Positions 16,460 through 17,875 of a stretch of DNA of 18,730 nucleotides are shown here, piece after piece. The notes under the pieces are model-generated. The model was not told the origin of the DNA, did not search any database, and was given only the letters and a program-made list of their open reading frames with translations. The DNA lies in the IMG/VR virus record IMGVR_UViG_2695420817_000007; one strand, written 5' to 3'. Numbering within the stretch: position 1 is the first letter of the stretch; each line of letters opens with the position of its first letter. The position numbers and the translations under genes are program-made. This DNA is from a virus. Lineage: Duplodnaviria > Heunggongvirae > Uroviricota > Caudoviricetes.

Positions 16460-16771
16460 TTACTCAGGAAATAACGCCCGGATATTCCCAGCCATCTGGC
16501 TGGTTATCTTAGCCACTGGTGCAGACTGTGCTTCAAACTTTTTTGAGCTGATTTGTGTCACAGGTAACATCTCATCATCAGCCCATGCGGCCAGTCGGTA
16601 AGCCTCTGCCGGATTCGTCTTCAGAAGTGCCAGCCCGGCCAGAAAAGCCACGCGTTGGCCGCTTTTGCGGGCTTCTGGTGTAAGGCTGTCCAGCCAGGCG
16701 CATGCTTCTCCTTCGTTCTTGACGGCAGCTGGCTTCAGATAGAAACTTATTCTTCTGGTTGGTGTCGTCAT
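16460..16771 (-). CDS. parR: ParR-like centromere-binding adaptor (type II partition)
   Basis: 103 aa; N-terminal segment RRISFYLKPA...AWLDSLTPEARKSGQRVAFLAGLAL parallels R1 ParR/StbB (RRTIAFKLNPD...DTLDSIPQGERSRLNRAALTAGLAL) as recalled; directly downstream of parM. Confidence 0.75.
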   Translation of the reverse strand: MTTPTRRISFYLKPAAVKNEGEACAWLDSLTPEARKSGQRVAFLAGLALLKTNPAEAYRLAAWADDEMLPVTQISSKKFEAQSAPVAKITSQMAGNIRALFPE

Positions 16772-16775
16772 TGGT

Positions 16776-17735
16776 TTACTCCTTGTTCATTGCGTACAGC
16801 CCATTAACCAGAGCAAATTGTGGCACTCCGTCCGCGATGAAAGTCGCATTAACTCCGCAGGCTTCGCGGATAGCGGGTGCCACAATCTCCGCCCCGCCAC
16901 CGACAACCATCACCCGCCCGTAACCCGAAAAAACCGCCAGCGCGCGGATCACGCGTTGTTTCAGTGTTTCTTCCTTTTCACGAATAACCGCCATCAGGCT
17001 GGCGTAATGCGCGTCATTGTGGATGTGCTGGCGCAGCCAGGCTTCATCATGGCGATGTTCGATAATGGTATTGGCGATGTGGTGACTGGTGCGCATACCG
17101 TTAGTGGCCATCACCGACAGTACGGCATCGGCCATCAGGGAAACGCCTACGTGTGGATCGCAAAACACCTGGCTGATACCTGCCAGTTGTCCCTGAACCT
17201 TTGCCACATCCAGCGTGGTTCCGCCTAAATCCACAATCAGCAGGGATTCAAACGGACTCATGTCAGCCAGTGCTTTAAAACCAGCCGGAATGGATTCAGG
17301 CATAACCCGTACGTTACGGATAGTGAATGCTTTTCCGTTCTGGTACGCCACCGGGCGCATGACGTTTGCTTTTTTGCGGTTGATGTTGGCCATGTCCGGC
17401 TGTGCGTTTGTGTCGAAATATTCGCTCAGTGGCAGGGTGACAACCACATCCACTTCCTGTGGTGTGATGCCTGATTTGACCAGCGCGTGATGAATGGCAA
17501 TGACATTCACATCGCTGTACTGGTATTGCGTGTCGGTCGTCTGGACAAAGCGATCGCTGACCGGATCAAAACCATAGCGCACGCCATCAAGCATGTAGTT
17601 CGCGGGCTGCGTGCCACCGAACGGCGCAGACCATTCCGACTTGAAGCTGTTCGGGCTGATGGCGTTGCGGCGTTCGCCGTTCTCAGTCCATGCCAGCTTG
17701 ATGTTGGTGGAGCCGTCATCGATACAAATTTTCAT
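16776..17735 (-). CDS. parM: ParM-like actin-family segregation ATPase (type II partition)
   Basis: 319 aa; N-terminal phosphate-1 motif MKICIDDGSTNIKLAW (R1 ParM: MLVFIDDGSTNIKLQW); further matches YSDVNVIAIHHAL, VMPESIPAG, LIVDLGGTTLD, GVSL, FSGY..V.VVGGGAEI, LVNGLY. Confidence 0.9.
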   Translation of the reverse strand: MKICIDDGSTNIKLAWTENGERRNAISPNSFKSEWSAPFGGTQPANYMLDGVRYGFDPVSDRFVQTTDTQYQYSDVNVIAIHHALVKSGITPQEVDVVVTLPLSEYFDTNAQPDMANINRKKANVMRPVAYQNGKAFTIRNVRVMPESIPAGFKALADMSPFESLLIVDLGGTTLDVAKVQGQLAGISQVFCDPHVGVSLMADAVLSVMATNGMRTSHHIANTIIEHRHDEAWLRQHIHNDAHYASLMAVIREKEETLKQRVIRALAVFSGYGRVMVVGGGAEIVAPAIREACGVNATFIADGVPQFALVNGLYAMNKE

Positions 17736-17764
17736 GTCGCTTTTCCTTATGTTGATTAATTAAT

Positions 17765-17875
17765 CGTTTACGGGATTCTGAAATCCCGTTTTTGCCTGTT
17801 TTATGCGCGCTTCATATATCGCGGCGCGTTTTTTGCTCATTTACGGGATTTGTGAATCCCGTTTCTGTCTGTTTT
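17765..17875. promoter_or_regulatory. parC-like centromere/promoter repeats upstream of parM
   Basis: Two 38-bp repeats about 73 bp apart (tttacgggattctgaaatcccgtttttgcctgtttt and tttacgggatttgtgaatcccgtttctgtctgtttt), each with an internal palindrome acgggatt-N4-aatcccgt. A GC-rich palindrome with a TATAT element lies between them. Confidence 0.6.

Follow-up and report, generated by a model that had tools for sequence, protein, structure and literature searches.

A parM–parR pair next to the replication gene of a P88-like prophage

The DNA analyzed here (referred to as the window) is a stretch of 18,730 nucleotides, IMG/VR virus record IMGVR_UViG_2695420817_000007, which contains a P2-family prophage in reversed orientation, with the tail and head genes on the minus strand. 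Between the gene for gpA, a replication protein, and the portal gene, gpQ, it carries parM and parR, which encode an actin-like ATPase and a small adaptor protein related to those of type II (ParMRC) plasmid partition systems, together with two palindromic repeats upstream of parM (Table 1). The initial annotation of this DNA had described a ParM/ParR/parC-type cassette at the gpA–portal locus of a P2-like phage; its coordinates are accurate, and profile searches confirm both proteins. From position 15300 to 18600, the window shares 95–97% DNA identity, as well as the same layout and the same module, with Escherichia phage P88 and other phages of the genus Xuanwuvirus (Peduoviridae), from which it differs in that gpA is interrupted by IS100 and in the cargo located between parR and the portal gene. 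The element is thus a P88-like (Xuanwuvirus) P2-family temperate prophage. P88 itself is mitomycin-inducible and plaque-forming, and its genome runs from int, C and cox through the early genes to replication endonuclease gpA, ParM and ParR, and then through a few cargo genes to the portal gene. The int end of our prophage falls beyond the window, so that int, C and cox are known from its relatives; the closest complete one, a prophage of strain 2014C-3075 (99.9% identity), possesses an integrase and lies beside pdxB. P2 has orf91, tin, old and cos between A and Q, in keeping with the statement of the initial annotation that cos and old/tin usually occupy this locus. We could not place cos with confidence in the window.

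ParM matches the Pfam families StbA_N (PF06406, E = 6.9e-82) and ParM C-terminal domain (PF21523, E = 6.2e-69) as well as PHROG 691, annotated 'partition protein', and it aligns full length (residues 2–316) with the structure of R1 ParM (1mwk, E = 1.3e-92). The motifs that bind the phosphates and adenosine of the nucleotide (DDGSTNIK, DLGGTTLD, MPESIPAG and GGGAE) are kept, and the protein is the actin-fold ATPase expected of a type II system. ParR matches Plasmid_stab_B (PF10784, E = 9.8e-24) and PHROG 2515 (E = 2.3e-59), which means that both partition proteins stand as phage families in PHROGs. In NCBIfam, ParM gave sub-threshold matches only and ParR none; a search of PDB sequences returned no relative of ParR.

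The parR ATG lies 4 nt past the parM stop codon, and parR is probably translationally coupled to parM. The N-terminal strand R(R/K)(I/V)SFYL(K/N)P is invariant across phage-type ParRs and aligns with R1 StbB; all these proteins also keep the helix QRxAxLAGLAL, and a variable linker then leads to a conserved C-terminal tail. In this tail, the motif N-x-x-x-L, like the N-terminal strand motif, is invariant in the seven sequences compared, including that of R1, and reads N-x-x-x-LFP in the six phage-type ParRs. The IncF StbB sequence (tool-derived) aligns with both ends of ParR, its C-terminus being KKNAMKLIN. In R1 ParR, the C-terminal peptide is the part that binds ParM (PDB entry 4A62). The gene directly downstream of parM encodes a small ribbon-helix-helix (RHH) adaptor that ends with a predicted ParM-binding tail. 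Both window proteins are identical to their 2014C-3075 counterparts (0 nonsynonymous differences); with P88, the identity is 98% for ParM and 83% for the ParR allele.

Paired palindromic repeats around the end of gpA

Upstream of parM lie two direct repeats of 42 nt, 81% identical, the starts of which are 73 nt apart. Each carries a 20-nt palindrome, ACGGGATT-N4-AATCCCGT, a motif that the window contains nowhere else and that was absent from all of 200 shuffles. The proximal palindrome is located 35–54 nt before the parM ATG, and the distal repeat lies within the 3' end of gpA, whose stop codon occupies positions 17812–17814.

Both palindromes are kept in the E. coli, E. albertii and Salmonella copies of the locus, and around the distal one the window and Salmonella share an identical stretch of 39 nt despite differing flanks. 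More distant loci have sites of different sequence: two copies of GCGGGACAAC...CCC, 72 nt apart, one of them inside the end of gpA, in Plesiomonas, and TGGGATTgaggAAACCCA and CGGGTTcattAAATCCCA, about 74 nt apart, in Hafnia; yet the paired arrangement is equivalent, with a spacing of 72–74 bp. The Serratia and Enterobacter loci share CAAAAA(C/T)GGGAAC (preceded by ACAGG in one locus and by AAGGG in two) but differ in arrangement, as they contain a long inverted repeat composed of ATAGAAAAAT, 26–28 nt and ATTTTTCTAT; in the ParRs of these two genera, one residue of the strand motif is changed, RK replacing RR. No such hairpins are present at the end of gene A in P2, a phage without parMR. Altogether, the half-sites and their spacing are kept across genera whereas hairpin strength is not, which speaks for protein recognition of duplex DNA rather than for a structured RNA or single strand. 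The parC-like repeats are thus candidate ParR-binding sites.

The module is a conserved component of a P2-like lineage

The initial annotation placed the cassette among the cargo of a variable hotspot. To define where variation begins, we relied on 60 evenly stepped rows sampled through the 1305 matching E. coli records. The genes of gpA, ParM and ParR occur together in all rows but the last two, which are partial, so that parMR follows almost every P88-like gpA. Matches across genomes end within parR or at its stop codon, indicating that variation begins there and not at gpA. One of the two partial rows, a rare variant from E. coli CUVET19-1704, displays gpA directly followed by an ead/Ea22-like pseudogene, the distal palindrome inside gpA being kept.

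A search of 5.8 billion proteins revealed intermediates with 54–62% identity to ParM in Plesiomonas, Hafnia, Serratia and Enterobacter. The order gpA–parM–parR–cargo–portal holds in these four genera as it does in E. coli, Salmonella and E. albertii. In the distant genera, ParR again belongs to PF10784 and the cargo varies (HicAB, a KAP NTPase and others); an integrase is visible in the Plesiomonas locus, and two of the distant loci belong to contigs that are 0.47 and 2.3 Mb long. We also scanned one genome per species for ParM loci and inspected the upstream 4 kb for gpA: full-length ParMs at least 58% identical to that of the window have gpA directly upstream, whereas those at most 52% identical have no gpA within 4 kb. 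Consistently, in a neighbor-joining tree (built without bootstrap values), the ParMs found in a phage context form one clade apart from R1 and the other plasmid types. Among true plasmids, the best ParM match reaches about 52% identity, and the plasmid collection is empty between 60% and 95%; an Apirhabdus plasmid match at 62% identity was set aside as a 143-aa ParM fragment that groups with the plasmid types. As judged from these comparisons, the association of ParMR with P2-like phages is old and stable.

Pairwise ratios of nonsynonymous to synonymous substitution rates (dN/dS) among six prophage copies are 0.05–0.10 for ParM and 0.1–0.39 for ParR, compared with 0.02 for the essential portal protein; ParM is under strong purifying selection. 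The parR alleles are deeply diverged (dS up to 1.2–1.3) beside a near-uniform parM (dS about 0.08), which points to a recombination breakpoint inside parR. For instance, the O157:H7 and window ParRs are 53% identical (window positions 16460–16717), with a dS of about 1.2. In conclusion, the type II (ParMRC) locus belongs to the conserved core of a P2-like lineage of integrating phages, which comprises the P88-like Xuanwuvirus together with their relatives in other Enterobacterales; the locus is no hotspot cargo, nor does it signal a plasmid backbone.

Chromosomal location of the module

Using positions 16380–17900 as a query against 5426 complete E. coli genomes, we found the cassette in 1304 of them (about 24%), including O157:H7, O111, O104:H4 and ST131 strains. 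Among its 1452 places, 1450 are chromosomal and two plasmid, which argues against the suggestion of the initial annotation that the element sits on a plasmid. A tblastn search of the plasmid collection PLSDB with ParR returned seven records, all linked to P88-like prophages. One of them, pZ1323PEC0009-2, is a circular record of 34,461 bp deposited as a plasmid, which consists of a whole P88-like genome, integrase included; its source is a cat E. coli isolate. MOB-suite assigns it no replicon type, whereas an IncF plasmid receives one. This record represents either an excised phage circle caught when the genome was assembled or a genuinely episomal state. Another of the seven, an S. boydii 'plasmid' match, was discarded, as it is actually an unplaced linear contig from a decayed Shigella prophage. 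The others are replicons between 228 kb and 1.4 Mb in size, with a prophage inside. We also noticed a P88-like gpA–parM–parR–portal locus, with a 97% identical ParM, on a 226-kb contig labeled Vagococcus sp. WN89Y; its presence in the assembly of a Gram-positive organism most likely reflects enterobacterial contamination.

The initial annotation also envisaged that the element could be a stable phage-plasmid, a reading that fares poorly. Both P88 and the 2014C-3075 prophage have an integrase, as does the single circular record of PLSDB, and the P88 annotation (no exhaustive profile search being involved) lists gpA alone as a replication gene, hence no replication module working under lysogenic repression. 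A plasmid location or a stable phage-plasmid state is thus not supported as the normal condition of these phages, while the circular record leaves open an occasional episomal state. Note that, by itself, a ParMRC module at this locus is no evidence that the element is a plasmid.

The replication origin and the IS100 insertion

The open reading frame (ORF) upstream of parM (17812–18651, minus strand, 279 aa) corresponds to the C-terminal part of gpA: it matches positions 635–852 of the 852-position profile of PHROG 91, 'nicking at origin of replication', as well as PHROG 6857, and the gpAs of its relatives are annotated 'replication endonuclease'. P88 gpA is 30% identical to P2 gpA (E = 9e-85). 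The annotated nick at the P2 origin falls within gene A, at position 29892, in the sequence CCTCGGAGTCCTGTCAATAACTGT. The P2 origin 20-mer has no match in the window at up to three mismatches, and the P88-like equivalent of the nick sequence, CCTTGGACTCGTGGCAATAACTGT, was found by alignment alone. With the origin at this place, the candidate centromere lies about 0.7–0.8 kb from a rolling-circle origin internal to A.

Homology to the P88-like phages ends at position 18600, from which point the window continues with an end of IS100kyp. Its 130 nt are 97–100% identical to IS100 copies found in more than 2400 plasmid records and in several phage records. The insertion lies 4–5 nt from the nick position, so that gpA is split almost exactly at the origin; this copy of the prophage is therefore probably replication-defective, and would be unable to replicate. 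As a consequence, the ParMR module is stranded in this copy, although parM and parR are intact.

Comparison with known systems

Among the closest known counterparts of the module is the ParMRC system of plasmid R1 and of IncF plasmids (StbA/StbB/parC). ParM is a full-length homologue of the R1 protein (about 46–52% identity), the two ParRs share the RHH N-terminus and the C-terminal tail, the order parC–parM–parR is the same, and in both cases the region upstream of parM contains repeats built on a GGG/CCC core. Nevertheless, the carrier is an integrating phage instead of a low-copy plasmid, the phage ParMs form a separate clade, and the ParR of E. coli-type phages is shorter than that of R1, the middle segment being absent. 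Besides, R1 parC comprises 5+5 direct iterons of 11 bp, compared to two palindromic sites, one of them inside the coding sequence of gene A, in the phage module.

Two other systems are found on elements that live integrated. SrpMRC, a ParM-type system of the SXT/R391 elements, stabilizes a single-copy plasmid and was proposed to be active only in the transient excised, replicating state (PMC4489591); in contrast to the P88-like phages, its element is conjugative, SrpR has no recognizable homology to ParR, and its genes belong to the int operon instead of following a replication initiator. The actin-like protein AlpC and the adaptor AlpA of the Corynebacterium glutamicum prophage CGP3, which binds sites (alpS) upstream of the genes, are needed for efficient replication and transport of the phage DNA (PMC4446434, PMC5539076). 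Here the host and the phage type are unrelated to ours, and the comparison concerns the role of the system. Finally, the phage-plasmids of the D6/P1 group include one, D6, with a StbA-type ParM 47.8% identical to that of the window, and the P2-like Burkholderia phage KS14 combines a P2-type virion module with a plasmid lifestyle by means of RepB and ParA. Unlike these phages, which carry plasmid initiators and are maintained as plasmids, P88-like phages combine an integrase with gpA as sole initiator and reside in chromosomes.

The module itself is not new: RefSeq phage records already annotate a 'plasmid segregation protein ParM' and a 'partition protein', plasmid maintenance of P88-like phages was offered as a speculation (Rousset 2022), and P88 was listed among putative phage-plasmids, with 'episomal and integrative states' suggested (Pfeifer 2021). 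The module and its leading, plasmid-based interpretation are thus known in print, the latter as speculation, and so is the puzzle, rightly raised by the initial annotation, of why a phage that integrates retains a system for partition. The literature we searched contains no experimental study of the role of the module in an integrating phage and, for CP-933T, nothing on parMR expression. What may be undescribed is that the phage ParMs of several genera form a single clade, that one of the paired palindromes falls inside gpA, that the sites lie near the origin and that parR is mosaic; these details refine a known feature and do not amount to a new kind of system.

Possible role of the module

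An integrated prophage is inherited with the chromosome; hence, the plausible substrate of a partition system encoded by such a phage is an extrachromosomal circle. We therefore favor, as the probable explanation, a working ParMRC partition module whose target would be the phage genome in its circular form, during its transient stay outside the chromosome. ParR dimers would bind the two GGG/CCC palindromes that flank the end of gene A, the starts of which are separated by 73 bp or about seven helical turns, the conserved C-terminal tail of ParR would capture the ends of ParM filaments, and ParM polymerization would move or separate the copies of the phage DNA. The substrate would most likely be the phage circle present while the early operon is active, i.e. 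after infection and before integration, or after excision during gpA-driven replication. The benefit could be the delivery of circles to both daughter cells or the positioning of replicating circles. More tentatively, and with appreciable doubt, one may picture the module as a viral cytoskeletal device that operates near a rolling-circle origin to separate or position monomeric P2-type circles, or that underlies a plasmid-like carrier state devoid of a plasmid replicon. If so, an old P2-like clade would provide the first enterobacterial case of actin-driven genome handling by an integrating phage.

Several points weigh against a working partition module. The support for it comes from sequence comparison. 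A cell committed to lysis needs no segregation, and the benefit for a transient episome is not self-evident. The E. coli CUVET19-1704 variant (positions 3395–4094 of its locus) is a natural deletion that has lost parM and parR, which means that the module is dispensable for prophage carriage. There are only two candidate ParR sites, compared with ten iterons in R1 parC, and they are inverted instead of being direct iterons, so that the centromere complex would need a different build. In addition, a sigma-70 scan found no convincing promoter for the parM strand near or between the repeats (a candidate picked manually, TTCAGA-16-ATTAAT, matched 8 of 12 positions and was not relied on), and both palindromes resemble intrinsic terminators on the plus strand, which is another possible role.

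Could P88-like phages be facultative phage-plasmids, which persist for many generations as low-copy circles stably inherited thanks to ParMRC? The completeness of the cassette, the purifying selection acting on it, the circular pZ1323PEC0009-2 record, the existence of the P2-like plasmid prophage KS14 and the proposals of Rousset (2022) and Pfeifer (2021) are all in line with this idea. We nevertheless regard it as unlikely given the almost exclusively chromosomal location in E. coli and the intact integrase, which the circular record also has. That record has no MOB-suite replicon type, spontaneous induction can also yield a circular contig, and the other 'plasmid' matches come down to an unplaced linear contig or to very large replicons with an integrated prophage. 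Moreover, gpA, the only initiator of P88, is a rolling-circle initiator of the early lytic operon that the immunity repressor should silence, whereas KS14 relies on RepB and ParA. A role as accessory cargo aimed at the host or at competitors, be it plasmid interference via a cross-reacting ParR/parC or anti-phage defense, seems still harder to sustain and is in our opinion improbable. Admittedly, the gpA–portal locus is a documented defense hotspot (Rousset 2022), and the divergent parR alleles beside a uniform parM evoke hotspot-type recombination that reaches into parR. However, PADLOC gave no match for the module, which stays fixed beside gpA across genera while the true downstream cargo changes, and the phage ParMs form one clade; since ParR is found on no plasmids except those carrying a P88-like prophage, cross-reaction with resident plasmids is unlikely.

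We give about as little credit to the possibility that the palindromes are bidirectional or antisense terminators, or replication-associated hairpins, with ParR acting mainly as a transcriptional regulator. T-runs do follow both palindromes on the plus strand, with terminator-like scores, the fold of the region is more stable than that of shuffled controls (z = -4.0) and the sites are near the origin. Yet hairpin strength is not kept in Plesiomonas, where the stem is 4 bp, and in Hafnia, in spite of the conserved half-sites and spacing; the end of P2 gene A is devoid of such elements, the R1 parC iterons share an ACCC core at intervals of about 11 bp, and there is no upstream plus-strand gene that would need termination here. 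The least credible explanation is that of a decaying relic without current function. It draws on the disruption of gpA by IS100, as this copy may have no replicating substrate, and it conflicts with the two intact ORFs, the lack of nonsynonymous differences with 2014C-3075, the low dN/dS of ParM across prophages and the existence of intact, near-identical copies by the thousand (clusters with 4287 and 1308 members). A module that is so common and so strongly selected raises a question of wider bearing: whether it serves a hidden episomal phase, better lysogenization or the organization of lytic replication, the answer would help to tell how distinct prophages, phage-plasmids and integrative elements are from one another.

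Other features of the locus

The features described above and their neighbors are listed in Table 1.

Table 1. Positions of the features of the locus in the window
Feature	Position	Strand	Basis or remark
Large terminase gene	12521–14272	+	
Portal gene (gpQ)	14272–15318	+	annotated portal in relatives; borders the late region
Variable cargo interval (1.1 kb), portal to parR	15319–16459		matches with other genomes are interrupted at or within the 3' part of parR
parR, RHH adaptor, 103 aa	16460–16771	-	PF10784, PHROG 2515
parM, actin-like partition ATPase, 319 aa	16776–17735	-	PF06406, PF21523, R1 ParM structure 1mwk, PHROG 691
Proximal parC-like repeat	17764–17805 (palindrome 17770–17789)	-	repeat search; inside the 76-nt gpA–parM spacer
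Distal parC-like repeat	17837–17878 (palindrome 17843–17862)	-	repeat search; inside the last gpA codons
gpA, C-terminal 263 codons, severed from the N-terminal part	17812–18600	-	PHROG 91, PHROG 6857
Equivalent of the P2 origin nick site, CCTTGGACTCGTGGCAATAACTGT	18577–18600	-	alignment with P2
End of IS100kyp (IS21 family), inserted in gpA	18601–18730		97–100% identity to IS100 istB-end copies

The cargo interval contains an ORF of 89 aa (15805–16074, minus strand) that belongs to PHROG 3941, of unknown function, and has no Pfam or PADLOC match. Upstream of it, we noticed a perfect inverted repeat of 13 nt (16096–16108 and 16164–16176), a plus-strand promoter-like site (16107–16135) and a hairpin followed by a T-run (16204–16238). 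Together, these elements could specify a short antisense RNA in the 15805–16310 region, for which Rfam gave sub-threshold matches only (terminator-like, ctRNA/sar). Lastly, just 3' of the parR stop codon, a perfect 21-bp tandem duplication, two copies of TCTCTATAAACGTGAGCATTT, spans positions 16403–16444; the closest relative in E. coli lacks 21 nt at this place and thus probably has a single copy.

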